From the UHGV virus genome UHGV-0213691: 44,307 bases of DNA. One strand, given 5' to 3'. The notes under the pieces are model-generated. The model saw nothing but the letters and a program-made list of their open reading frames with translations. It had not been told where the DNA came from and ran no database searches. The position numbers and the translations under genes were made by a program. Below, piece after piece: positions 2,195-37,192 of the stretch (positions are counted from its first letter, which is position 1; the number at the start of each line of letters is the position of its first letter). This stretch comes from a virus.

Positions 2195-3615
2195 TTTTTA
2201 CCTCGTCTCTTCATGTAATTAAGCAACTCTTCCTGTACCGATTTCTTCTCGTCTGTACGCGCGGCGACAACCTCGTCCAGCGTGTCTTTAGCAACGATGT
2301 GGTACAGGAACACTGGTCGCTCGTGGCCTGCCTGTTTCTGGCGGACCGGGCCTATACGCTCGACAACCTGCAAATAGTGCTCAAGGTTCCAGCCTTGCGA
2401 AATAAACGCCAGATGATGTCCCCCATCCTGTAAATTCAAACCATGCCCGGCTGACGCAGGGTGGACGCACAAGATTTCGATTTCACCACGGTTCCACGCT
2501 TCCATCTGCTTATTACCCTTAGCCCCTTTGGCAAACGCCTGCGCCTGCGGGAATCGCTTAAGGATGCGCTCCAGTTCATGCTTGAACTGATAGGCCACCA
2601 GCAACGGTGCGCCCTGTAACTCCTCAACAATCGACTCCAGCGCGTCCAGTTTCGTATCGTGCACTTTCTCCCAGTCTTTCGTTGCTTCGCCGTCCGGCCC
2701 CGATACATACACGGCACCGGACGCAATCTGTAGGCACTTCGACGTCTTCGCCGCCGCATTAGCCGCTTCAACTTCCCCGCTCTCCAGTTCCGCGAATAAC
2801 TTCTCCTCCATATCGATGTACGCCTGACGTGCTTTCTTCGGCAGGTCGATTTCAACCGGCACAATAATCGGCGCTTCACACCCGAACCACTCGGCGGCGT
2901 CAATCGTAAGACTGATGTCCTTCATTTTCTGATGAATCTCATTATCCGCACCTGGTCGTGCGTGATACTCCCGCGCCATAGCTGACTTACCTTTCTGTAT
3001 CGAGTTAAACCAGCGGTCGGTGAATGCCGTGTAGGAAGAACCGAGTCGCTCGCCCGCGTCGATAAACCAGTTCTGGCCCCACAAGTCTTTGAGGCCGTTT
3101 GGCGACGGTGTACCTGTCAGGTTGATGAAACGCTTAACTTTACCGAACGCCACTTTACTAAGCGCCTTTGCTCTCTTGCTACCGCCTGAACGGCTGCGGA
3201 ACGATTTAAGCTTCGTGCTCTCATCAGCAACGATAACCGTAAAAGGCCAGTCGTCTTTGCCGTAGTAGTCAATCAACCACTCGATAACTTCGTAGTTCGT
3301 ACACACCACGTTAGCGTCAGACTCCAGCGCCGCGATGCGGCGTTTCTCTGAACCTGTTGCATCGACGACACGCAGACATGGGAACCGCCATTTCTCTTGT
3401 TCAGCGGGCCATGTACCGGATGCAACGCGCAGCGGGGCCAGGATTAACACTCGGTCGTCGTCATTAAGTTGCCCATTACGGAACAGTCGGTTTAAGGCCC
3501 ACAGTACGCTGCCAGTCTTCCCGGCGCCCATGCTTGCCCATATGTTGCAGCGATGGTGTCGCAACATGAACGAGGTCATGAGTTTCTGGTACTCGCGTCT
3601 TTGAAACTTACTCAT
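2191..3615 (-). CDS. SNF2/DEAD-like family helicase
   Basis: 474 aa; Walker A GAGKTG, DEAH-like VADESTK, ILAPLRVASGTW and LTGTPSPNGLKDLWGQ motifs. Confidence 0.85.
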   Translation of the reverse strand: MSKFQRREYQKLMTSFMLRHHRCNIWASMGAGKTGSVLWALNRLFRNGQLNDDDRVLILAPLRVASGTWPAEQEKWRFPCLRVVDATGSEKRRIAALESDANVVCTNYEVIEWLIDYYGKDDWPFTVIVADESTKLKSFRSRSGGSKRAKALSKVAFGKVKRFINLTGTPSPNGLKDLWGQNWFIDAGERLGSSYTAFTDRWFNSIQKGKSAMAREYHARPGADNEIHQKMKDISLTIDAAEWFGCEAPIIVPVEIDLPKKARQAYIDMEEKLFAELESGEVEAANAAAKTSKCLQIASGAVYVSGPDGEATKDWEKVHDTKLDALESIVEELQGAPLLVAYQFKHELERILKRFPQAQAFAKGAKGNKQMEAWNRGEIEILCVHPASAGHGLNLQDGGHHLAFISQGWNLEHYLQVVERIGPVRQKQAGHERPVFLYHIVAKDTLDEVVAARTDEKKSVQEELLNYMKRRGKK

Positions 3616-4537
3616 TTACCGCCCCCATGAACGCCTTTATAAATTCAGCGGCTACTTGCGGGACGATGGCATTGCCATAACCGCGCAATCGTCCCACTCT
3701 GGCGGGTATCCCATTAGCCAGCGGGAATGTGCCGGGTTCAACTGGCCGGAACTTTCCATCACGGCATCCGAGCCAGTCAGCATCTGACCAGAAGCCGTGA
3801 TGCGAATTGGTTGTGTTATTTTCAGACCCTGCTCCGTCGAGTAGTCCAGCCTGTCGAATGTCCTGTCCTTCCCGTCCTTGCGAATACCTGTCTTTCCGCT
3901 CCCCATGTAGTCGTTCGCTGTCGGTGTAGGCCAAGCCGCCAACGCGGCAGCCCATCCCAGTTTGTTCGGTTTCGTCCTGCCGTCTGTGCTGCGCATGTTC
4001 GCGTCGTTTGTTATCAGTGATACCGCCGGTGTGGGCCAGTCTGTGCGCGCCGAAGAAAAGTCTGTCGCGTTTGTGTGGCGCGCCGACGCTACAAGCTGGG
4101 AGTACCGCAAACCCGACGGCGTAGCCTTCTCCCTCCAGGTGAGTTTGTAAGTCGCACATCCACGATTTTGCAATTGCTGGCGCAACCTGTTCACCAAAGA
4201 GGACTGGAGGGCAGCACTCGCTGATGAGGTCAAGGAATACGGGCGCGAGGTGTCTTGGGTCGAACTGTCCGAGTTGCTTTCCTGCCGCGCTAAACGGTTG
4301 GCAAGGCGGGCTTCCCGTCCAGAGAGGCGTATCTTCCGAAACTCCCGCAAGTCTGAGCGCGAGAGGCCAGCCGCCGATACCAGCGAAAAAATGACACTGG
4401 GTGAACCCGTCGAGGTCTTCAGGTTTAACTTCGGTAATGCTTCTTTCATCTACAATTCCAAAAGGTATGTGACCCTGCTTTATTAATTCACGCAGCCACG
4501 CGGCTGCGCCTTTATCCCACTCATTGTAATAGTTCAT
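3608..4537 (-). CDS. DNA (cytosine-5)-methyltransferase-like protein, compact
   Basis: 309 aa; motif I FAGIGG, motif IV PPCQPFS (PCQ Cys), FGEQV (ENV-like), HKRDRLFF (RxR), GNAIVPQV; only about 20 aa between motifs I and IV. Confidence 0.6.
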   Translation of the reverse strand: MNYYNEWDKGAAAWLRELIKQGHIPFGIVDERSITEVKPEDLDGFTQCHFFAGIGGWPLALRLAGVSEDTPLWTGSPPCQPFSAAGKQLGQFDPRHLAPVFLDLISECCPPVLFGEQVAPAIAKSWMCDLQTHLEGEGYAVGFAVLPACSVGAPHKRDRLFFGAHRLAHTGGITDNKRREHAQHRRQDETEQTGMGCRVGGLAYTDSERLHGERKDRYSQGREGQDIRQAGLLDGAGSENNTTNSHHGFWSDADWLGCRDGKFRPVEPGTFPLANGIPARVGRLRGYGNAIVPQVAAEFIKAFMGAVNE

Positions 4538-5275: not shown

Positions 5276-5403
5276 TCCAGCACCCACAGATACATCGCAA
5301 TGAGCATGCATAGTACCGCAACCACCATGCCGTATTGTCCTTCGTGACAGTAGACACCGGCGGCGAACCCCGCCAGTACCGCGATAATAAGTTTACTTAG
5401 CAT
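5272..5403 (-). CDS. Small membrane protein (43 aa)
   Basis: ATG overlaps 3' end of polymerase gene; hydrophobic MLSKLIIAVLAGFAAG...; ATGA-coupled downstream. Confidence 0.3.
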   Translation of the reverse strand: MLSKLIIAVLAGFAAGVYCHEGQYGMVVAVLCMLIAMYLWVLE

Positions 5404-7666
5404 AACGGTACACCTCTTCCCCGGCCCACGTTAGCGGGAATCCTTCAGCCCATTCAGGTAATGAGCATAATAGGTCGCCCATCTCTTTAACCGTGTACTC
5501 CGGTGTGTCTGGTGTTTCGGCGACGCATTCGTCATGTACGTGAAGTACAATTGGGTAGCCCGCTGCCTCGACCGTCAGGAGTCCGTTAACCAGTAAATCA
5601 CGACACAACGCCTGGATAATGTTTTCACACAATTTTCCGCCGTGTGTGTACAAAGTTGTCCACTGGCGGGTGGTCTGATTTTCGCCCTGGTATTTAATGC
5701 GAACGTTAGTTGTTACGCGCCCGTCCTCGTCGGTCTCTTTAGTAACGCTCAGACCTATGCCGGGGTATGACATGATGCGCCCTGACGGCAGTTCTACACA
5801 CAACCACCAACCCGGCACAAAGTTACCCTGTCTGTCTTTCTCTTTAGTACGCCAGATGCGGATAGCTCTGTCGCCGTTGAGGCGGACTCTGGCCCCCGCC
5901 CAAAACTCTCGTCCCGGATTTCTGATTGCAGCAATTACCGAATCCTTAAGGTCGTTCCAGAATTTCACTGTTTCCGGGTGGGCTTCCCGCCACATGCGCT
6001 TGATAGCATCGCAAGTGCGCCAGACTTCTTTAGGCAGCACATAAGAGGCCCGTTCATCTTTTTTACCGGGTTTTGGGGGTCGTTTAGCCTCCTGAATTCT
6101 GGCCCATTCGTAGCCACGGGCGGTAGCCGCCCAAATGTGGTCGGGGAACGTGCCCCGCATTGTCTCTGTCATTTTAAAGAGGTCCAGCCCGTAAGTTTTA
6201 GCCATAGTCATAAAAGCCCCTACGCCCCCCTCGTAGCCGAGGCCGAGTTCGCAACATTTCCCGACCTGACGTAGGTCCTTACGGGTGGCTTTTAGTTCTA
6301 CGGGGTCCATGCCAAACATCTTGCCCGCGGTGGCGCAATAAATATCAATCCCTGCGCGGAAGGTCTCAAGCGCGGATGTCTCCCCCGCGGTCCAGGCCAA
6401 CCCGCGCCCTTCTACGTTTGAGTAGTCGGCAACGAGCAACTTACTACCCTTTTCAGGGATGATGCAACTGCGAACAGTCGAGGCTGTCAGCTTGGATACG
6501 TCGAAACGACGGTGCGCCCGACCCTTTAGCAGCAGATTGATGCCGAACGATAGGGGGTTGAGACGACGGTTCCAGTCTTCGTCGGACTCCCACGGCTGGC
6601 GTACAAGTTTCTTCTCCTCGTTAGTCGGGTCATCATGATAGTACCCGCGCGACAGGTTCTGCGGCTGGAACCCTTTACCCGCAAATCGTAAAGTGCGCTT
6701 TGCCCCACCGTACTGGATGCAACCGCGGCGGCGGCCGTCTTTGGACCGTCCTAGCAGGAGCGGTTTGTATTTTGTCGACGCCGTGGAGGCCGCGCCGAGG
6801 CGCATCTCAATGATTGTGCGCGCATCGTCAGGTAAGTCGTCGTCCTCTAGCAAACCTTCGAGCGTTGCTTTCTGCGCATTATAGATATTGTAGGCCGGTG
6901 CCAGCTCCCGAAGGATTGGCAGGAAGTCTTTACCCGTTAGCTTCCCGCCAAATTTAGCCCTGGCCTCGTTTTTTAGCTCTTGCTTGTGGCGTTCAACTGC
7001 TGCTACCGCCGCCTCAGCAAGAGCCGCATCAACAAAGAAGCCTCGGTCGTTGATTAACTGGTCAAGTTCAAGTACACGGTCCTCGAAATCGGAGTTACCC
7101 CAACGTGGCAGCTTATGGAAGACTTCACGCATCGCTGTGATGTCGCTCACGGCGTACTTGATGAACAGCGCCCATTCGTCCGGGTGCGTTTCGGCGGTGT
7201 AGCGGCGGATTTTATAGTTCTTCGGGGTTGGTTTGGAGAAACGCTGAATCAGAGCCTTGCCACGTTTATCTTTCGCGTTGTCGGCGGATACGCCCAGCAC
7301 TTCGCATAATGCGTCAAGTGAACCCGGCAGCGCGTGGCGAAACGCCCAAATCATAGTGTCAATGGTGTTGCTGACCGGAATATCGAAGCCCCAGCAGTTC
7401 TTCATGATGAGCCTATCGAAAAGTCCACCGTTATGCCACACCATCTTAATGCGACTGTTTGGCTTCACCAGACGGCGTAACGCGCGGTGTAAATCTCCCG
7501 GCATGTCGCTGCCGTCAGTGCAGTCCCATACCTGAACAGGCTCGTCATCAAAAGCATAGGTGCAGATGAGCACTTCGGTAGTCGGGTGTTCGGCGTAAGC
7601 ATAGGAGCCGACTTTCTTCAAATCGGCTTCGGAGAAGGTTTCAAAGTCTAAGAACAGATAACTCAT
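5393..7666 (-). CDS. Family A DNA polymerase with 3'-5' exonuclease domain
   Basis: 757 aa; Exo I LDFETFS; motif A DYSNVEGR; motif B RKDLRQVGKCCELGLGYEGG; motif C VHDE. Confidence 0.9.
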   Translation of the reverse strand: MSYLFLDFETFSEADLKKVGSYAYAEHPTTEVLICTYAFDDEPVQVWDCTDGSDMPGDLHRALRRLVKPNSRIKMVWHNGGLFDRLIMKNCWGFDIPVSNTIDTMIWAFRHALPGSLDALCEVLGVSADNAKDKRGKALIQRFSKPTPKNYKIRRYTAETHPDEWALFIKYAVSDITAMREVFHKLPRWGNSDFEDRVLELDQLINDRGFFVDAALAEAAVAAVERHKQELKNEARAKFGGKLTGKDFLPILRELAPAYNIYNAQKATLEGLLEDDDLPDDARTIIEMRLGAASTASTKYKPLLLGRSKDGRRRGCIQYGGAKRTLRFAGKGFQPQNLSRGYYHDDPTNEEKKLVRQPWESDEDWNRRLNPLSFGINLLLKGRAHRRFDVSKLTASTVRSCIIPEKGSKLLVADYSNVEGRGLAWTAGETSALETFRAGIDIYCATAGKMFGMDPVELKATRKDLRQVGKCCELGLGYEGGVGAFMTMAKTYGLDLFKMTETMRGTFPDHIWAATARGYEWARIQEAKRPPKPGKKDERASYVLPKEVWRTCDAIKRMWREAHPETVKFWNDLKDSVIAAIRNPGREFWAGARVRLNGDRAIRIWRTKEKDRQGNFVPGWWLCVELPSGRIMSYPGIGLSVTKETDEDGRVTTNVRIKYQGENQTTRQWTTLYTHGGKLCENIIQALCRDLLVNGLLTVEAAGYPIVLHVHDECVAETPDTPEYTVKEMGDLLCSLPEWAEGFPLTWAGEEVYRYAK

Positions 7667-7724: not shown

Positions 7725-8357
7725 TTAACCACGGCGACGACGTTCGCGGCGCGGTGCTTCATCTTCTTCGTCGTCTTCCAGGTCGTCGGTGCTCGCTACT
7801 ACACTGGAGCCGCCGAAGCGTTTACCTTCGCCCATATACTTGATGCCGAGGATGGTAGCGCACAGGTTTTTCCAATCTTTGTGCCACCATAATTCTACAG
7901 ATACGTTTGCGATACATCCGCTATATACCTGCTCGCCTTCTATTTCTTTCCCGTCGATGTTGAAATCAGGCTCGGTTTGTTTTTCACCTTTAGCCGATGT
8001 CATAATCACCGGTTGGCGGTTGTTTGTAGCGCGGAAATACAGACCTTCTTCAAAATCCTCAATCGGATTATCTCGCATTGCCAGGTCACGGACGCAGCAT
8101 TTGTCTGCGTGGTGGTCTACACCGTAGTTGGCCTTCATCCATTTCTCGGCAGCAGCGGCCCCGATTGCATCTGTTACAACTTCCAACGCGGTGTCGTAAA
8201 GCGCATCAATTTGAGGATGGTCAGGCTGCATAAGAACAGTAACCTGATACTTACCCTTAATCAGTTTACCGGTTTTCTTGTCCTCAGAGTCGGCGGCACG
8301 TTCAAATACGTTAACCCAGGCAGTGTTTACTTTACGCAGATTCAGTTTAATACCCAT
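7725..8357 (-). CDS. Putative ssDNA-binding protein (DUF2815-like) with acidic C-terminal tail
   Basis: 210 aa; N-terminal VNTAWVNVFERA...KYQVTVLM pattern; DDLEDDEEDE tail; classic position beside DUF2800 and Pol A genes. Confidence 0.45.
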   Translation of the reverse strand: MGIKLNLRKVNTAWVNVFERAADSEDKKTGKLIKGKYQVTVLMQPDHPQIDALYDTALEVVTDAIGAAAAEKWMKANYGVDHHADKCCVRDLAMRDNPIEDFEEGLYFRATNNRQPVIMTSAKGEKQTEPDFNIDGKEIEGEQVYSGCIANVSVELWWHKDWKNLCATILGIKYMGEGKRFGGSSVVASTDDLEDDEEDEAPRRERRRRG

Positions 8358-8411: not shown

Positions 8412-8440
8412 ACTATAATAGTTAACTATTCAGGTGTCAA
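8412..8440 (-). promoter_or_regulatory. Sigma70-like promoter (TTGACA-17-TATAGT) with perfect palindrome AATAGTTAACTATT (8417-8430)
   Basis: Consensus -35, 17-bp spacer, operator overlapping spacer and -10; upstream of SSB-like gene. Confidence 0.55.
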
Positions 8441-8673
8441 CCCTTCCAGCCAGTTATTTTCTCAACTATCAGTACGTATTCGAAAGGCCCCTCCAAATTC
8501 TGCACCCATTTAATTTCCTTCGTTGAGTCAAGTTGCTCGGGGTCTACCGTTTCGTACTTAATCGCAACGTAGACCGTGAGCGGAAGAAGGATAACTAGAA
8601 GCGGCACTAACATTGCCCAGTAAACTACGAAGGCCACAAGCCCGCCAAGCACCCTGAACATTTTACGAATCAT
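8437..8673 (-). CDS. Small membrane protein (78 aa)
   Basis: ATG at 8673 with GAGGAGGA RBS; hydrophobic core LVAFVVYWAMLVPLLVILLPLTVYVAI; ATGA overlap with DUF2800 stop. Confidence 0.4.
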   Translation of the reverse strand: MIRKMFRVLGGLVAFVVYWAMLVPLLVILLPLTVYVAIKYETVDPEQLDSTKEIKWVQNLEGPFEYVLIVEKITGWKG

Positions 8674-9944
8674 TCTAAATCCTCCTCTGTTACCTGATTC
8701 CACTCAGGACGTTTATCGTCTGCCGTTGCAACACATGGCGCGCCAGGCTTACGGGTCACGAGTTTAGCCAATTCTTCCCACAGTTCTGGGTCAATTTTAC
8801 CTATGGTTTTTTCTGCTTCTGTTGGGGTAACTGGCACTAGTTTATCTAATAAGTAGCCGTTTACATGGTTTTCTCTGAATTTATTTACTGCGTCTTCATC
8901 TTTCCACGCACGATTACCGGGACGACCTTCAACCAGCTTGTACCCAGGCACTTTCTTACCTGAATGCAACGCAGCAGCCATAGCTCTCTCCACCTTGTCG
9001 ATGTGCTGGCGCAACAACGGCAACTTCTCATACTCAGCTGCGAGTTGCTCTGGTGTAAGCTCCAGTGCAAAGTCGTCTTCCAGTTCTTCCGCCAGCACCG
9101 AGTTAACTGTTTTTGTACGCGCTGCGCACTGTTCGGAGAACCGACACCACTGACAACCATCTGCCGATGGCTTGAAGTCCGACGCTTTCAGGTTCTTCTT
9201 GCCACGTGAATAGGCGTCAAGCGCTAACAGAGCGCGTTTCTGTGCGAACTTAGCGAACAGTTCCAGACCTTCAACCGAGATGTCACACTCGGACGCACCG
9301 CCAGCATACGGCTGGAAGATAACAAGACGAACAACTGTGATGTTATAACGTCTCCTGAGTCGGCGATAAACACCGAGAGCGTAAAGCATTAGCTGCTTGT
9401 TTTCTTTCGCTTCGACACGATGCCGTCCCGTTTTAAGGTCGCCAATAATGAGCATGTGCTCGTCAGTGTTTGCCAGTTCCTGAACGGCAACAAGGTCGGC
9501 GGTGCCGAACGTCTCAATGCCTTCGTAGCCCGGATGCAATACCTCAGTAAGATTGACGCGCATTTCCAGCTTGGCGTAAGTCGCTACATCGATAATCGCT
9601 TTGCAGTAATCGGTGTACTTGCGCACCTGCTCAATCATATCCGTCGTAATCAGTACCGCACCTTTCATCGGGCTTATTAGCGCCTTAATCTGGCCTTTAC
9701 CTTCATCCAGCACGTAAGCACCGACTTCACGCTCTAATGGCAACGCAGTACCGCGTATATAGGCGTTGAGATGTACCTCAGCTATGGTGTGACACGCGGT
9801 CCCTATAACGGCGGATTTACCCGAAGTGTTAGGAATATCTTTTTCACAGGCCAGTGACGCCGCGCATGACAGCCACTTTTTCGCCCCAGACGGCGACAGT
9901 AAGGCGTGCACATCGTTATTGCCACCGCGTTCCTTTAAAATCAT
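8670..9944 (-). CDS. DUF2800-like PD-(D/E)xK nuclease with C-terminal Cys cluster (Cas4-like)
   Basis: About 424 aa from ATG 9944 (track start 9959 is GTG); N-terminal LSPSGAKKWLSCAASL; C-terminal CQWCRFSEQC cluster. Confidence 0.65.
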   Translation of the reverse strand: MILKERGGNNDVHALLSPSGAKKWLSCAASLACEKDIPNTSGKSAVIGTACHTIAEVHLNAYIRGTALPLEREVGAYVLDEGKGQIKALISPMKGAVLITTDMIEQVRKYTDYCKAIIDVATYAKLEMRVNLTEVLHPGYEGIETFGTADLVAVQELANTDEHMLIIGDLKTGRHRVEAKENKQLMLYALGVYRRLRRRYNITVVRLVIFQPYAGGASECDISVEGLELFAKFAQKRALLALDAYSRGKKNLKASDFKPSADGCQWCRFSEQCAARTKTVNSVLAEELEDDFALELTPEQLAAEYEKLPLLRQHIDKVERAMAAALHSGKKVPGYKLVEGRPGNRAWKDEDAVNKFRENHVNGYLLDKLVPVTPTEAEKTIGKIDPELWEELAKLVTRKPGAPCVATADDKRPEWNQVTEEDLE

Positions 9945-10213
9945 ACCCTGCTCTCCCACTGGTCAATTAAATGTCGTGTCTTATGTTCGCAGTGCATAGC
10001 CCACCCATACATCGACTCGAAGACATAAAAGTCAGGTTTGGCAAATGTCGTGCGCTTAATCTGCGACACGTGACGGCCTATATCTTTAGGCCGCGGTACT
10101 TTGCCTAAGTACGCCATCTCTTTCATCTGGTGCGCACCGGACGGCGCACGCAACAGCCATAGCGCCTCTGTGTTATCCCGCCTGTCTACGGCGCGATAGA
10201 GTTGGTAAATCAT
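9941..10213 (-). CDS. Hypothetical protein (90 aa)
   Basis: ATG with GAGGA RBS; its first 28 codons are duplicated at 10693-10769. Confidence 0.5.
   Translation of the reverse strand: MIYQLYRAVDRRDNTEALWLLRAPSGAHQMKEMAYLGKVPRPKDIGRHVSQIKRTTFAKPDFYVFESMYGWAMHCEHKTRHLIDQWESRV
10137..10213. repeat. Direct repeat copy 1 (77 bp; 63-bp identical core 10151-10213)
   Basis: Near-identical to 10693-10769; covers the 5' coding end of gene 9941-10213 and stops at its start codon. Confidence 0.85.
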
Positions 10214-10232
10214 GTGCTTATCCTCAAAGTCA

Positions 10233-10252
10233 CCCGGCGCCGAAGCGCCGGG
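10233..10252. promoter_or_regulatory. GC-rich perfect hairpin (CCCGGCGC-CGAA-GCGCCGGG) in intergenic spacer
   Basis: 8-bp stem, 4-nt loop, no U-tract; between Tad2-like gene and next gene. Confidence 0.35.
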
Positions 10253-10260
10253 CCGGTTGA

Positions 10261-10524
10261 TTATTCTTCGTTATCGTCCAAAATAATCCAGTCGTAAGAC
10301 AGGACATCAGTTTGCGATGCCAACCACGGTACTAATTTATCATCGGCAGTTTTCATGCAAATAAATGATAGTGTTTCAATACCATCAACGCCTTCGACAT
10401 CAGATTCAAAGCTCCAATGGTTGCCGACGACGAGGAAAAGGAACATATTTTTACCATTCCACCCACCGCGCGCAACACGGTGCCCGATAGCTAACGCTTT
10501 AGTTGCTTCCCCGAAATTAATCAT
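10261..10524 (-). CDS. DUF2829-like protein (Tad2-type candidate anti-Thoeris cyclic-nucleotide sponge)
   Basis: 87 aa; FGEA..AL..G.RVARGGWNGK.MFL and MKTADDKLVPWLASQTDVLSYDW match the remembered DUF2829 signature; ATG with GAGGAG RBS. Confidence 0.45.
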   Translation of the reverse strand: MINFGEATKALAIGHRVARGGWNGKNMFLFLVVGNHWSFESDVEGVDGIETLSFICMKTADDKLVPWLASQTDVLSYDWIILDDNEE

Positions 10525-10528
10525 GTCA

Positions 10529-10769
10529 TTACTCCTCTATATCGTAATACTTAGCGACAATGGCTTTCAGTTCCTTGTGGAACTCCTGCACCTGGAGGTC
10601 CTTCAGCTTTTTGACTGAACGGGCATCATATCCGTCCAGCAGGTCGTCCAGCTCGTCGGCGCAGTCGTCAGAATCGCCGCTGCCGATGTGCTCCGGACGG
10701 TGCGCGCAACAGCCATAGCGCCTCTGTGTTATCCCGCCTGTCTACGGCGCGATAGAGTTGGTAAATCAT
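10529..10769 (-). pseudogene. Mosaic gene remnant: duplicated 28-codon N-terminus fused out of frame to a paralogue of the acidic protein C-terminus
   Basis: ATG at 10769 reads MIYQLYRAVDRRDNTEALWLLRAPSGAH then stops at 10668; the +1 frame continues for 70 codons ending at 10529-10531 and resembles the C-terminus of ORF 10813-11340. Confidence 0.3.
10693..10769. repeat. Direct repeat copy 2 (77 bp; 63-bp identical core 10707-10769)
   Basis: See copy 1; the two copies bracket a 556-bp segment containing the Tad2-like gene. Confidence 0.85.
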
Positions 10770-10812
10770 AATTCCGACCCTCAGTTAAAGCGGCCAGAAG
10801 GCCGCGAGATAG

Positions 10813-11340
10813 TTATTCTTCTTCGAAGTACTTGTTCTTGATTGCCGTCAGGCGTTCCAGGTATTCAGCCAGGTCTTCGTCTTTAATCGCGGCAATCTTC
10901 ATTTTCTTACCGGTGAACTCTTCCAGCAGTTCATCAGAATCATCGCACGCTGCATCGCTCGGACCTTCGTTAATCGCATCATCAATAGCCTGAATCTGGT
11001 CACGCAGAGACTGGTAATCGACTTCTTCTTTCTCTTCTTCCGGCTCTGGCGTCGGCTCCTCTACTTTAGCTTTACGTGGCTTACGTTTAGGCTTCTCTTC
11101 TTCTGGTTTAGTGTCAACGACGTCTTCACCTTCTACCGGGATTTCTTTTTTAATGCTGGATTTTTGTAATTCTAATGTATGTTCGAGTTCAAGTTTCTCT
11201 TTAGCCACCTCGTGCTTGGCAATGGCGATATTTAGTTTTGTGTCCAGTTCTTTCGATGATGCTTGTTTCACGCTATTCGCAGCAATCAGTTCATGCGCAA
11301 CTACGAAACGTTCCAGTAATACTAAGAATTTCTCTAACAT
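10813..11340 (-). CDS. Highly acidic, E/K-rich early protein (175 aa)
   Basis: First gene of leftward operon; GAGGAGAG RBS; long acidic low-complexity stretches. Confidence 0.55.
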   Translation of the reverse strand: MLEKFLVLLERFVVAHELIAANSVKQASSKELDTKLNIAIAKHEVAKEKLELEHTLELQKSSIKKEIPVEGEDVVDTKPEEEKPKRKPRKAKVEEPTPEPEEEKEEVDYQSLRDQIQAIDDAINEGPSDAACDDSDELLEEFTGKKMKIAAIKDEDLAEYLERLTAIKNKYFEEE

Positions 11341-11371: not shown

Positions 11372-11400
11372 ACTATAATAGCGAACTATTCACTTGTCAA
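11372..11400 (-). promoter_or_regulatory. Leftward early promoter (TTGACA-17-TATAGT) with operator AATAGCGAACTATT (11377-11390)
   Basis: Consensus -35, 17-bp spacer; in divergent control region. Confidence 0.6.
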
Positions 11401-11464
11401 TGGGCTTTTCTAAAATAATTAATATGGTACTATTCACATATCAACTGACTAAGGAGTAATCGAC
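11401..11464 (+). promoter_or_regulatory. Rightward promoter/operator region for the HTH gene (degenerate operator AATATGGTACTATT 11421-11434; RBS AAGGAG)
   Basis: TACTAT -10-like hexamer at 11428-11433 but no clear -35; strong RBS 11451-11456. Confidence 0.35.
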
Positions 11465-11680
11465 ATGCAACCATCCGAACTAGGCATCCGTGTAGAACAA
11501 CGCCGTAAAGAACTAGGCATCTCCCAGCGCCGTCTTGCGGTCCTGGCCGGCGTTTCCCAGGGCGCGATTAACCAGCTTGCGCTCGGGGTAACTCAGGACG
11601 TCCGCCCGGCGACGCTGTTTAAACTGGCGGAAGTGCTGCAAGTAGACGCCAAGTGGTTGGCGTTCGGTGAAGGGGCTTAA
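11465..11680 (+). CDS. XRE-family helix-turn-helix transcriptional regulator (Cro/CI-like)
   Basis: 71 aa; HTH signature ELGISQRRLAVLAGVSQGAINQLALG; divergent from leftward early operon. Confidence 0.75.
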   Translation: MQPSELGIRVEQRRKELGISQRRLAVLAGVSQGAINQLALGVTQDVRPATLFKLAEVLQVDAKWLAFGEGA

Positions 11681-11698
11681 CGCCCCTTTCTTTTTACC
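11672..11698 (+). terminator. Intrinsic terminator after HTH gene
   Basis: AGGGGC-TTAAC-GCCCCT hairpin followed by TTCTTTTT. Confidence 0.55.
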
Positions 11699-13965
11699 TA
11701 TTCCAAATCCTCCGCTGTCACCACCAGCATTTCATTCGGTTCGTATATTGTCTTCGGAATCTTGTTATCCGTTATCCTGGTGTTAAGCCGGTAGCGGCCA
11801 GGTATTATCTGATTGTTTTCGTCAGTCCCCGGAACAAGATACCCGGCCTCAACCATTTTCTTAATCTTCCCGCGTTCTATGGCTTCTTTGGAGTTAAACG
11901 CCTTTGCGTTGGGGTCTGACTGAGCGAGCTTATTCGCTGCGGCCACCGTGATACCTTCATTGCCGTTGTAGGTTCCTTCTGCCAGTTCAAACGCTGCCAG
12001 TATCGTGGCTTCCGAACTGTTGACGGCGTTCTCTACGGTTTTACGTACGTTTTCTTTACCTTCCTTTGTCAGCCCTTCTTCCCGCTCTTTCTCCTCGTCA
12101 GTTTTGAACGGCTCGAAGCCCCACGGCATCAGTACAAGCGCCTTGTGCGGTTCAGGCAGGTCGAGGTTTACGATTGTGCCGTATTCCTCTGTGCTACCCA
12201 GGAACTCAACCGCGCGATACTCTTTCGGCGGCGGGGCTTCACGGAACTGTACTGACTCCAACACCATACCAACCGTCTTCTGTTGAGGCCCGTGCTTAAA
12301 TTTAGAGTGGTATACGTTTATCTGGCGGTCGGTAGCGCGTTCGATTGTCAGCTCCACGTCGACGCCCGCATACAGCGCCCCACTGCCACGGGCCTTCTTT
12401 CCACCCTTCGGCGTATGGTGGACAACGCCTACCGCAGCTTTAGTCGCATCACGTACTTCTTTCAGGATGGCAATGACTTTACCCATGCCGATTGCCGTCG
12501 ATGAACTGTTCTCGTCGAACTTATCAATCGTCAGGGCCAGCGTCTGGTTAAGGGTGTCGAATGCGACCATGCCAATTGGCTCGTCACCCGCAGTTTCACG
12601 CATTAACTTAATCAGGTTTTTCAGTTTTCCGACTTCGCCCATGTCGATAACATGTACATAATCTTTACCTTCCTCGCCATATTTAGCCGCGAGTGCATCT
12701 ATACGTGTGCGGGTAGCTGCGCCGCCCTCACCGTCGATATAAAAATGGTGGCAACGCTGCGTATCAGCTCCCGCAAACCGGTATCCTGCGGCGCTAAGGT
12801 ACATCATCCCCAGTGTATAAAACGATTTGTACGTGCCAGATTCCCCGACGATATCCCAGATACAATCTGATGGCACATACCCTTCGACGACGAAATCAGC
12901 CTTTACCGGTTCCGGTAGCTCGTCCTCCTCTGGGTCCTCGTCGTCTTCTAGGTCGTCGAGGCTGCATGAAACTGATTCACGCGCGCCCCAGCCAATTGCC
13001 TCAGCGACTTCACTGAACGGCAGCCCAGTCGCATCGCACGCATACTTCCACACCTCTTTCGGTGACATGCCTTCGGTTGCCGTAATGTCGGTGTCGTGAA
13101 TCATGGTTACGTTAGGCGCTTCGTACCCTTCACGTGGGAAGCATAGCAGGAAGTCGTCCGGACGCGGCGTCGGGTCGCTGTAGTTCTCTGCGTGTTCTGG
13201 CGTAGCTGGCATCTTCAGACCGCGGGGCGTCATGACGCCACCATACTCGAACGCCAGTGCTTCGAACGCGTCCGTAAACGCGGTGCGCAGTTCTTCCGGT
13301 ATCTGGTAGTCAGATGCGCTGCTCACCTCGTAATCCGGTACGCCTTCCAGTAACTCGTCAGGGTCAATCAGGTCGTTTCGGCGCGACCAGATAACCTGAG
13401 AGCCGACCGGTGGCAGGTACATCGGCTGGGACAGAGTAAACCCGCTGCGGTCCGCGCCCATGCCTTTGAAGAAGTGCTCCAGCAACCCGTGACGTACGCG
13501 GATGATGTCACCGCCTTCGACCGGGCGGGCCAGCGGCATGACGACGCGAAAGCGTGGAGACTCATCGGTATGGGATGCCGTGGTGTAAACGCACATGGCT
13601 TTACGGCCTCGCTTAACCAGGCGCACTGCTTCCTGGTACTCTTCCGGCGTTGCGCTGTCGAAGTCAAGATACGCCAGTGACGATTTAGTTACAGACGCGT
13701 CACAGCGATAGAAGAAGCCTTTACGCGCATGCTTAAAGTCACCTGTTTCCGGGTCTTTTACGGTGCTGTGTGTCGAGTCGCACGCGGCGGTGATATATCC
13801 CGGCGCGGTCTTCGGGTTAACCCCATCACGGACAGCATCAAGCGGCTGGAGTAGCTCTTTCAGGTCGTCCAGTGTTGCCGTGTGAGTGGTTCTGACGTTT
13901 ATATCCTTTTTCTCTGCCCGCGCGTTGCGACGGGACCACGAGTAGGATAAAATTACATCGGACAT
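11698..13965 (-). CDS. Bifunctional primase(-polymerase)/helicase
   Basis: 755 aa; N-terminal AEP-like motifs YLDFD, ASHT, RFRVV; C-terminal RecA-like ATPase Walker A GESGTYKS and Walker B MVAFDTL. Confidence 0.7.
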   Translation of the reverse strand: MSDVILSYSWSRRNARAEKKDINVRTTHTATLDDLKELLQPLDAVRDGVNPKTAPGYITAACDSTHSTVKDPETGDFKHARKGFFYRCDASVTKSSLAYLDFDSATPEEYQEAVRLVKRGRKAMCVYTTASHTDESPRFRVVMPLARPVEGGDIIRVRHGLLEHFFKGMGADRSGFTLSQPMYLPPVGSQVIWSRRNDLIDPDELLEGVPDYEVSSASDYQIPEELRTAFTDAFEALAFEYGGVMTPRGLKMPATPEHAENYSDPTPRPDDFLLCFPREGYEAPNVTMIHDTDITATEGMSPKEVWKYACDATGLPFSEVAEAIGWGARESVSCSLDDLEDDEDPEEDELPEPVKADFVVEGYVPSDCIWDIVGESGTYKSFYTLGMMYLSAAGYRFAGADTQRCHHFYIDGEGGAATRTRIDALAAKYGEEGKDYVHVIDMGEVGKLKNLIKLMRETAGDEPIGMVAFDTLNQTLALTIDKFDENSSSTAIGMGKVIAILKEVRDATKAAVGVVHHTPKGGKKARGSGALYAGVDVELTIERATDRQINVYHSKFKHGPQQKTVGMVLESVQFREAPPPKEYRAVEFLGSTEEYGTIVNLDLPEPHKALVLMPWGFEPFKTDEEKEREEGLTKEGKENVRKTVENAVNSSEATILAAFELAEGTYNGNEGITVAAANKLAQSDPNAKAFNSKEAIERGKIKKMVEAGYLVPGTDENNQIIPGRYRLNTRITDNKIPKTIYEPNEMLVVTAEDLE

Positions 13966-14855: not shown

Positions 14856-14884
14856 TTGCACACCCCAACATAATAGGATACTAT
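14856..14884 (+). promoter_or_regulatory. Rightward promoter (TTGCAC-17-TACTAT) with operator AATAGGATACTATT (14872-14885)
   Basis: 33-bp block TTGCACACCCCAACATAATAGGATACTATTCAC, near-identical to promoters at 27937-27965 and 37164-37192. Confidence 0.6.
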
Positions 14885-14918
14885 TCACTTATCGAAACGA
14901 GACAGAGGAGTGGGTGTT

Positions 14919-24904: not shown

Positions 24905-24946
24905 TTTAGTAAACCTCTCTTTCCGTTCAATAGCACCTATACGTGA

Positions 24947-24975
24947 ATAGTACCCTATTATACTGGTGTCTGCAA
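24947..24975 (-). promoter_or_regulatory. Moron promoter (TTGCAG-17-TACTAT) with operator AATAGTACCCTATT (24946-24959)
   Basis: Same conserved architecture as 27937-27965 and 37164-37192. Confidence 0.55.
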
Positions 24976-27895: not shown

Positions 27896-27936
27896 TTTCC
27901 ATCTCCCATTTAAGTTAACATTGTTGGTGTAAGTGA

Positions 27937-27965
27937 ATAGTACCCTATTATGTTGGGGTGTGCAA
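27937..27965 (-). promoter_or_regulatory. Moron promoter (TTGCAC-17-TACTAT) with operator AATAGTACCCTATT (27936-27949)
   Basis: 33-bp block identical to the promoter at 14856-14884 except one base. Confidence 0.6.
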
Positions 27966-37135: not shown

Positions 37136-37163
37136 AATTATTTCCTCAGTAAGTTACAGGTGA

Positions 37164-37192
37164 ATAGTACCCTATTATATTGGGGTGTGCAA
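37164..37192 (-). promoter_or_regulatory. Island promoter (TTGCAC-17-TACTAT) with operator AATAGTACCCTATT (37163-37176)
   Basis: TTGCACACCCCAATATAATAGGGTACTATTCAC, near-identical to promoters at 14856 and 27937. Confidence 0.6.

Follow-up and report, generated by a model that had tools for sequence, protein, structure and literature searches.

UHGV-0213691, the viral genome analysed here over its whole length of 44,307 nucleotides (nt; the window), is a complete, circularly permuted genome of a Kagunavirus (Guernseyvirinae), and the phage is a lytic one of the E. coli/Salmonella type. End-to-end alignment with the Kagunavirus PDP21P8 gives 81-98% identity in mosaic blocks. Our subject is a Tad2-like gene on the minus strand, enclosed between two copies of a direct repeat, and the broken gene fragment that lies beside it. 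Read on the minus strand, the locus begins with an intact, resident (recipient-type) gene for an acidic protein of 175 amino acids (aa) at 10813-11340, a full-length member of phrog_3127 (E 8e-66) that is 98% identical in nucleotides to its counterpart in PDP21P8; an exact database look-up of the protein returned no record. It is followed by a recipient-type intergenic region of 43 nt (10770-10812), in which a GCGGCC/GGCCGC hairpin (fold -14.8 kcal/mol, z -2.0) precedes a Shine-Dalgarno (SD) sequence, GAGGG. The stretch in dispute comes next (about 10529-10769, minus strand, between the acidic gene and Tad2) and consists of repeat copy 2 (10693-10769) and a gene tail (10529-10692). The Tad2-like gene itself (10261-10524, minus strand, 87 aa) is separated by a donor-type intergenic region (10214-10260, minus strand: a 9-bp GC hairpin with a UUCG loop, then the SD GAGGA) from an intact gene of 90 aa, referred to here as MIYQLY (9941-10213, minus strand). 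MIYQLY belongs to phrog_4965 (E 6e-45), has no assigned function, and has orthologues in ORF35 of K1H and others; its first 77 nt (10137-10213) are repeat copy 1.

The repeat is the largest direct repeat that a repeat search found in the window. It spans 10131-10213 and 10687-10769 (83 nt, 79 of 83 identical) with a start-to-start spacing of 556 nt, and the next longest repeat families measure 41 and 33 nt. An earlier note on this DNA had described the 77-nt part, 10137-10213 and 10693-10769, as identical at 71 of 77 positions with a 63-bp core. The repeat exists, and its figures need correction: 75 of the 77 positions agree, with an exact run of 65 nt (10149-10213 and 10705-10769), so that the errors lay in the conservative direction. 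Each copy does end at a minus-strand ATG, and copy 1 is indeed the start of the 90-aa open reading frame (ORF) at 9941-10213. Copy 2 repeats 25 complete codons of MIYQLY and two bases of the 26th, and opens a dead-end ORF of 33 codons (10668-10769) whose 28 N-terminal residues are the same as those of copy 1. No stop codon interrupts the +1 frame over 70 codons (10741-10532), again as first described, and the frame contains no ATG, GTG or TTG start that would give at least 25 aa. The tail lies in this frame relative to copy 2. It comprises the last 53 codons of a second acidic gene (10690-10532) with their stop codon TAA (10531-10529), lacks a start here, and carries the SD of Tad2 (GAGGAG).

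The identification of the gene between the repeats as Tad2-like holds up well. Its product matches PF11195 with E 3e-22 and 79.3 bits against a cut-off of 25, residues 3-81 aligning with profile positions 2-72 of 73, and it resembles the solved chains 8sme (SPO1 gp34.65; 1.1e-14), 8v3e (1.8e-14), 9eib (1.9e-14), 8wjd (1e-14) and 8kbi (4.6e-16). A tblastn search of GenBank phages gave at best 67.5% aa identity and no match in Guernseyvirinae, and neither the GenBank phage collection nor the searched literature holds a Tad2 from Kagunavirus or Guernseyvirinae; relatives in IMG/VR and in metagenome contigs of the JGI set do not exceed 64% aa identity. Tad2 proteins sequester the Thoeris signal 1''-3' glycocyclic ADP-ribose (gcADPR; 10.1101/2023.05.01.538930; PMC10680739), and the activity that defines them is binding of 1''-3' gcADPR and rescue of the phage from Thoeris (10.1101/2023.05.01.538930). 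By family membership, the protein of the window most likely protects against Thoeris immunity by sequestering gcADPR. The insert carries an SD for Tad2, an SD for the downstream gene and a stable hairpin. A scan of 10214-10692 for promoters and terminators turned up neither a sigma-70-like promoter nor a canonical T-tract terminator on the coding (minus) strand; the only site it reported inside the insert is a terminator-like hairpin on the plus strand (10592-10606).

The locus without the cassette is found in close relatives. K1H, AV104, PDP21P8 and Henuyfy11N, together with most of the 395 matching GenBank records, have the acidic gene, a 43-nt hairpin/SD spacer and an intact MIYQLY gene, and the very spacer of the window is found 5' of the intact gene in K1H, PDP21P8 and Henuyfy11N. 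The matched stretch is about 1136 nt in most of the GenBank relatives versus 1701 nt in the window, and in none of the 395 phage records does the match extend over 80% or more of the region. On one metagenome contig (L186), which is free of the cassette, a gene directly after the acidic gene codes for exactly the MIYQLY protein of the window (4 of 273 nt differ). Taking 556 nt out of the window produces the exact empty-site arrangement. The relatives lacking this segment that an alignment had been suggested to look for therefore exist, K1H, PDP21P8, Henuyfy11N and L186 being examples. Copy 2 tracks the MIYQLY alleles of cassette-free phages as far as CCGTCCGG and no further.

From that point on the sequence follows that of another phage lineage. 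The Tad2 of the window clusters at 90% identity with a representative (P0001) located on a phiEap-2-like contig, L101, where the gene order is a helix-turn-helix (HTH) gene, a 59-aa ORF, an intact 165-aa acidic protein, Tad2, a hairpin with an SD, and an unrelated 65-aa gene starting ATGAAAATT. Tad2 begins 4 nt after the acidic stop in L101, as it does in the window, and the two Tad2 proteins are 90% identical. Window positions 10695-10210 align with L101 4830-5315 over 486 nt without a gap at 93.2% identity; nothing else nearby aligns at such a level. Enterobacter phage phiEap-2 has a 52-aa ORF in place of Tad2, and matches the tail (10529-10692) at 95.7%, at the 3' end of the coding sequence ALA45563.1, and the hairpin and SD (10213-10266) at 92.6%. 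The hairpin region 10214-10260 (fold -22.9 kcal/mol, z -3.1) is 92.6-96% identical to phiEap-2 and L101, and now serves the intact MIYQLY gene.

The tail had been described as a domain paralogous to the resident acidic protein. Common family membership is borne out: the tail maps to positions 126-178 of the 178 in phrog_3127, to which the resident protein also belongs. Descent within this genome is not. The 53 tail residues are identical at 52 positions to residues 113-165 of the acidic protein of L101, and the tail is about 96% identical in nucleotides to the donor-type gene; against the resident protein it shows 33% aa identity and no nucleotide-level similarity. It is therefore a xenologous stump, the remnant of a phiEap-2-like acidic gene, and not a paralogue. 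A word-indexed protein search with the 53 residues returned a single match of 56 aa, which is uninformative. The tail behaves as a young pseudogene remnant, in which only GAGGAG, the ribosome-binding site that precedes the Tad2 ATG by 7 nt, is clearly useful.

The two seams can be placed by aligning the recipient alleles, the window and the donor-type locus of L101. The right seam (10692-10695, minus strand) is intragenic and out-of-frame, and reads ...CCGTCCGG|AGCACATCGG... on the minus strand. At this place the recipient alleles have ...CCGTCCGG TGCGCACCAGATG..., the donor has ...GGCGA AGCACATCGGCAGC..., and the product has ...CCGTCCGG AGCACATCGGCAGC.... The bases CG (10695-10694) are common to both parents, G 10693 is specific to the recipient and A 10692 to the donor. 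Homology around the seam is patchy (CG..GC.CA.C, 7 of 11 positions), and the donor codons stand in the +1 frame relative to MIYQLY. The left seam is the ATGA that contains the MIYQLY start codon (10210-10213, minus strand); similarity to L101 stops at window position 10210. Here the donor reads ...GAGGATAAGCAC ATGA AAATT and the recipient ...ATGA TTTACC, with only ATGA in common, which belongs both to the donor's next gene (ATGAAAATT...) and to the recipient MIYQLY gene (ATGATTTAC...). Start/stop overlaps of the form ATGA are the usual gene boundary in these phages, as at MIYQLY/nuclease (9941-9944) and in the upstream genes of L010 and L016, two of the contigs described below. Extended parental homology is absent at both seams when judged against L101, from which the exact donor differs, so that the last base is uncertain. 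On the recipient, 77 nt separate the seams and their order is reversed; the opening 77 nt of MIYQLY are therefore doubled, and the whole of MIYQLY is kept behind the donor SD.

The same join occurs in other genomes. The exact Tad2 protein is present on 17 public contigs, ten of which were inspected (L008-L017). Eight of them (L008, L009, L010, L011, L013, L015, L016 and L017) have the identical junction CCGTCCGG|AGCACATCGG and the spacing of 556; their assemblies come from SRR8427812, ERZ15184914, SRR25010927, SRR27412478, SRR10682320, ERZ27238592, ERR7123549 and ERZ28582755. The layout is that of the window in L008, L009, L011, L013, L015 and L017, with an additional 76-aa gene ahead of copy 2 in L010 and an additional NinX-like gene (PF10765) at that place in L016. 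The remaining two contigs, L012 and L014, are from one study and have lost copy 2 in a deletion of 195 nt relative to L016, through a 6-nt microhomology, CGACGA; illegitimate joins therefore do occur at the locus. In these two genomes an in-frame chimeric ORF of 118 aa (L012 4309-4665, L014 3054-3410) combines the N-terminal 78 aa of the NinX-like protein, which is intact in L016, with the last 40 aa of the tail. Searches of GenBank phages, IMG/VR and the JGI metagenome set turned up no genome with the cassette, and a 35-nt exact pattern of the junction had no match in IMG/VR.

Tail, Tad2 and hairpin are 98-100% identical in nucleotides in the ten contigs, against 81-94% for the acidic gene and 85-96% for the nuclease relative to the window (flanks overall 81-99%). 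A near-identical insert in diverged flanks points to recent acquisition and to spread by recombination in the flanks. The copies of the repeat vary more: they differ at 2 of 77 positions in the window versus 7-10 of 77 in the other eight junction-bearing genomes. Copy 2 of the window equals copy 1 of L016, and copy 2 of L009 equals the gene of Henuyfy11N. On the sequence evidence these differences are alternative natural MIYQLY alleles, which would have come by allele exchange with the Kagunavirus pool or between the copies, and not by mutation. Variants CGCGCACC and CGTGCGCC occur in either copy among the window and L008-L017, with no substitutions in the insert between the copies.

These findings bear out the proposal that the locus is a recombination junction left by insertion of a Tad2 cassette: the empty sites, the collinear donor-type locus and the identical junction in eight assemblies all speak for it. 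We conclude, with a probability of roughly 0.87, that the repeat and the broken fragment are the pair of seams left when a Kagunavirus acquired a 486-bp Tad2 segment horizontally. The starting genome would have had the usual order of acidic gene, 43 nt, MIYQLY and nuclease. It would have received the 486-bp stretch from a phiEap-2-like member of Guernseyvirinae, in which Tad2 directly follows an intact acidic gene, and the transferred piece would have comprised the last 53 codons of that acidic gene, Tad2, and the donor hairpin and ribosome-binding site, up to the ATG(A) of the next gene. Both seams would be illegitimate, one falling out of frame inside MIYQLY after nt 77 and the other on the 4-nt ATGA at the MIYQLY start, and a complete MIYQLY would have been preserved downstream, now translated from the donor ribosome-binding site. 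The duplication may have arisen by a single template switch in a co-infected cell, in which synthesis left the recipient at nt 77, copied 486 nt of donor and returned at ATGA; two successive illegitimate crossovers would give the same product. After this single event the cassette would have spread among diverged Kagunaviruses by homologous recombination in the flanks. Copy 2 and the donor tail are, then, a dead-end ORF of 33 codons followed by a start-less remnant, and not a gene that depends on frameshifting.

Several points weigh against this account. No exact donor was found: L101 is 93% identical to the insert, which leaves the breakpoint uncertain at single-base level, and more microhomology could have been present at the seams of the true donor. 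The ten cassette contigs were picked by their exact Tad2 protein, which biases the comparison toward low Tad2 divergence, although synonymous sites and the 211 nt of the insert outside Tad2 are left unbiased by such retrieval. Nine further Tad2 variants in the 90% cluster (P0122-P0130) lie outside the comparison and might reveal independent junctions. Whether the origin was a template switch or took two steps, whether Tad2 is active and in which direction the cassette spread are all matters of inference.

A further alternative, which we consider unlikely, is that the repeat-flanked unit behaves as a self-portable anti-defence module; in a related reading, the sublineage whose tail bears an ATG would have put the donor tail to new use as a small expressed protein. 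As a portable module, the cassette would be released by recombination between the two 5' copies of MIYQLY as a 556-bp circle (one repeat plus tail, Tad2 and hairpin), which could re-enter any co-infecting Kagunavirus by a single homologous crossover in the 77-nt segment and so regenerate repeat, cassette and repeat. If true, this would account for an insert of zero divergence in backgrounds diverged to 81-99%, for the invariant spacing of 556 nt, and for the swapping of allele patches. The allele patterns in the 77-nt copies do not discriminate between such Campbell-type hopping, flank exchange and gene conversion.

Retention of the donor tail as something functional, either a small expressed protein (67 aa from the +1-frame ATG of L008-type genomes) or a translated or structured leader for Tad2 expression, is decidedly improbable. 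In its favour, all cassette copies seen keep at least the last 40 codons and the GAGGAG-TAATGAC-ATG arrangement, gene callers predict the 67-aa ORF in six contigs, and the start of the donor Tad2 4 nt past the acidic stop is compatible with translational coupling. However, the tail lacks a start codon in the window, L010 and L016, and recency would lead one to expect its retention just as much; Tad2 is served by an SD of its own. Among cassette copies the tail shows three single substitutions, each of them non-synonymous (L013 has G to R, L016 D to E, and L012/L014 A to T), a tiny number that fits relaxed constraint. We also rejected an origin of the +1-frame ATG of L008-type genomes as a rescue of the tail: the GATGGC allele that supplies it also occurs in the intact gene of cassette-free Henuyfy11N, and hence pre-exists in a phage without the cassette. 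As an exact pattern, this allele is absent from IMG/VR.

The earlier note had offered, as one option, a gene needing a +1 frameshift, in which the truncated ORF and the +1-frame tail would be joined by programmed slippage, for example at UUC UGA C, into a fusion protein of 80 residues. In its favour, no stop interrupts the +1 frame across the junction, a ribosome slipping by +1 at UUC-UGA would continue into GAC GAC TGC..., and the out-of-frame arrangement is kept in nine genomes. Programmed +1 frameshifting as known from prfB uses a re-pairing codon and an SD stimulator, and the present case resembles prfB in having a short ORF that ends in UGA C and a long +1 frame onward. It differs in that the site, CGA UUC UGA C, is not slippery, a tRNA-Phe on UUC being unable to re-pair on UCU, and in that the upstream sequence GCAGCGGCGA contains no SD-like stimulator (AGGGGG/GGAGG). 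The two halves derive from unrelated genes of two phages, and conservation is explained by recency, with about zero substitutions in the whole insert. The arrangement also varies among relatives: the fragment is start-less in some genomes, begins in the L008 type with an ATG of its own that stems from a natural MIYQLY allele, and in L012/L014, which lack copy 2 and the first 13 tail codons, is fused in its remaining part to the NinX-like gene. The frameshift option is thus unsupported, and we regard it as very improbable.

Three further explanations have almost nothing left to them. An in-genome tandem duplication of the acidic-MIYQLY unit with subsequent divergence and decay, which would make the tail a true paralogue, could appeal to the presence of two phrog_3127 sequences 120 nt apart, and founders on the tail's 96% nucleotide identity to the phiEap-2/L101 genes, a match that runs on through Tad2 and the hairpin, against 33% aa identity to the resident gene. 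A mobile element (a transposon, an integron cassette or a site-specific insertion) would explain the direct duplication of target sequence at the flanks, and is next to impossible given that no gene for a transposase or integrase lies within the 486-nt insert, where Tad2 is the only family-matched ORF, or next to it, that terminal inverted repeats and attC-like structures are missing, and that the insert corresponds collinearly to a segment of a related phage genome with one end inside a gene. To our knowledge, target-site duplications are also far shorter than 77 nt. An artefact of sequencing or assembly, whether an indel of one base or an assembly that is collapsed or chimeric, is hardly credible when eight independent assemblies from different runs, projects and genomic backgrounds agree base for base on the junction and on the 556-nt spacing; the earlier note had named such an error as the refuting case, and nothing was found in favour of it.

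The case is a well-preserved example of a known process, illegitimate recombination with an anti-defence cargo, and entails no new mechanism. In the model of Hendrix and Hatfull, the mosaic "novel joints" and moron-like insertions of tailed phages result from illegitimate or microhomology recombination that is filtered by selection. Background on phage mosaicism by illegitimate recombination is available (PMC3029335, PMC2327257, PMC8136500). The present locus conforms in its empty site in close relatives, in an insert that is a slice of another phage, in seams with 0-4 nt of homology, and in having one seam exactly at a gene boundary with the downstream gene functional and the insert bringing its own ribosome-binding site and hairpin. 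It departs from such joints in that the second seam falls within a gene and can still be recognised, marked by 77 nt of duplicated recipient sequence and by a stump of 164 nt from the donor's neighbouring gene, and in that both parental configurations and a secondary deletion derivative are available. Unlike morons, it sits in a lytic phage, its cargo serves anti-defence and not host fitness, and no promoter was found within the insert. Tad2 proteins form homotetramers in which two ligand pockets lie between protomers. Compared with known Tad2 proteins (DUF2829/PF11195; for example gp34.65 of Bacillus phage SPO1), the 87-aa product has the same full-length PF11195 domain and similarity to five solved members, and is encoded by a small stand-alone gene among early genes; it differs in being known here from sequence and in that the closest protein of the GenBank phage collection reaches no more than 67.5% identity. 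Template-switch errors of replication, described for cellular genomes as fork stalling and template switching (FoSTeS) or microhomology-mediated break-induced replication (MMBIR), give insertions with flanking duplication. The locus shares with them a short foreign segment, microhomology seams, and a return point upstream of the departure, which yields the recipient duplication; here the process would have taken place in phage co-infection, and it is indistinguishable from two sequential crossovers.

The locus constitutes an unusually complete natural record of the gain of an anti-defence gene by a lytic phage, since the empty site, the donor-type locus, both seams, the gene-saving duplication and a later microhomology deletion can all be recovered from public data. 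A Tad2 homologue is thereby placed in Kagunavirus, a genus that serves in work on phages of E. coli and Salmonella; no deposited isolate in the searched collection carries this homologue, and the insert looks as if it has recently moved through diverged genomes. Next to the cassette lie genes for a PD-(D/E)XK exonuclease and for a single-strand-binding protein; the counterpart of the latter in the related phage Bas70 is annotated as a Gp2.5-like single-stranded DNA (ssDNA) binding and annealing protein. Exact loss of the cassette by single-strand annealing at the 65-nt repeat, traceless afterwards, is plausible. The exact repeat predicts that scarless Tad2-less deletion variants may occur in phage stocks, which is relevant to the measurement of Thoeris sensitivity.

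Two observations concern the phiEap-2-like phages. In phiEap-2 (L001), a putative HNH endonuclease gene (3204-3692) lies directly 5' of the acidic gene, and HNH genes are found elsewhere in L010 and L013; it is a speculative thought that double-strand breaks made by such enzymes in co-infection could stimulate exchange around the locus. The phiEap-2-like phages also have a distant orthologue of the MIYQLY protein (L101 5506-5742, MKYVLYEAVDTRDNKPMLWL...; 32% identity, E 2e-9), placed one gene further downstream than in Kagunavirus.

The cassette lies in an operon of replication and recombination genes behind a strong promoter-like site. This site, TTGACA-17-TATAGT (11 of 12 matches; 11372-11400, minus strand), was found in the promoter and terminator scan upstream of the acidic gene and likely drives the minus-strand operon that includes the cassette; the position is compatible with early expression. 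Near the cassette, a divergent HTH regulator (11465-11680) is the single gene on the plus strand. The minus-strand neighbours are a helicase-primase (11698-13965), a DUF2800/PD-(D/E)XK nuclease (8670-9959), an Enc34-type ssDNA-binding protein (7725-8357) and a family A DNA polymerase (5393-7666). The longest ORF of the nuclease begins with GTG at 9959; homologues are 413 aa long, and the MIYQLY stop shares an ATGA overlap with an ATG at 9944, so that 9944 is probably the true start.

A 19-nt motif, GTGAATAGTNCNCTATTAT, occurs seven times in the window, against an expectation of 0 in shuffled sequence, and each time points in the direction of local transcription: at 8415-8433, 11375-11393, 11419-11437 and 14870-14888 on the minus strand, and at 24943-24961, 27933-27951 and 37160-37178 on the plus strand. 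At 11372-11400 it supplies the spacer and the -10 element of the promoter-like site. The motif is likely a conserved family of phage promoters or operators, and is possibly bound by the adjacent HTH protein (11465-11680).

Small accessory genes can occupy at least three separate slots in the Kagunavirus operon: one between nuclease and MIYQLY, one between the HTH and acidic genes, and one between the acidic gene and MIYQLY. They hold different unrelated ORFs of 49-165 aa in ZCEC5 (L004), RP180 (L005), fEg-Eco19 (L006), Bas70 (L007), L009, L010 and L016, and make the locus a local hotspot of gene turnover.

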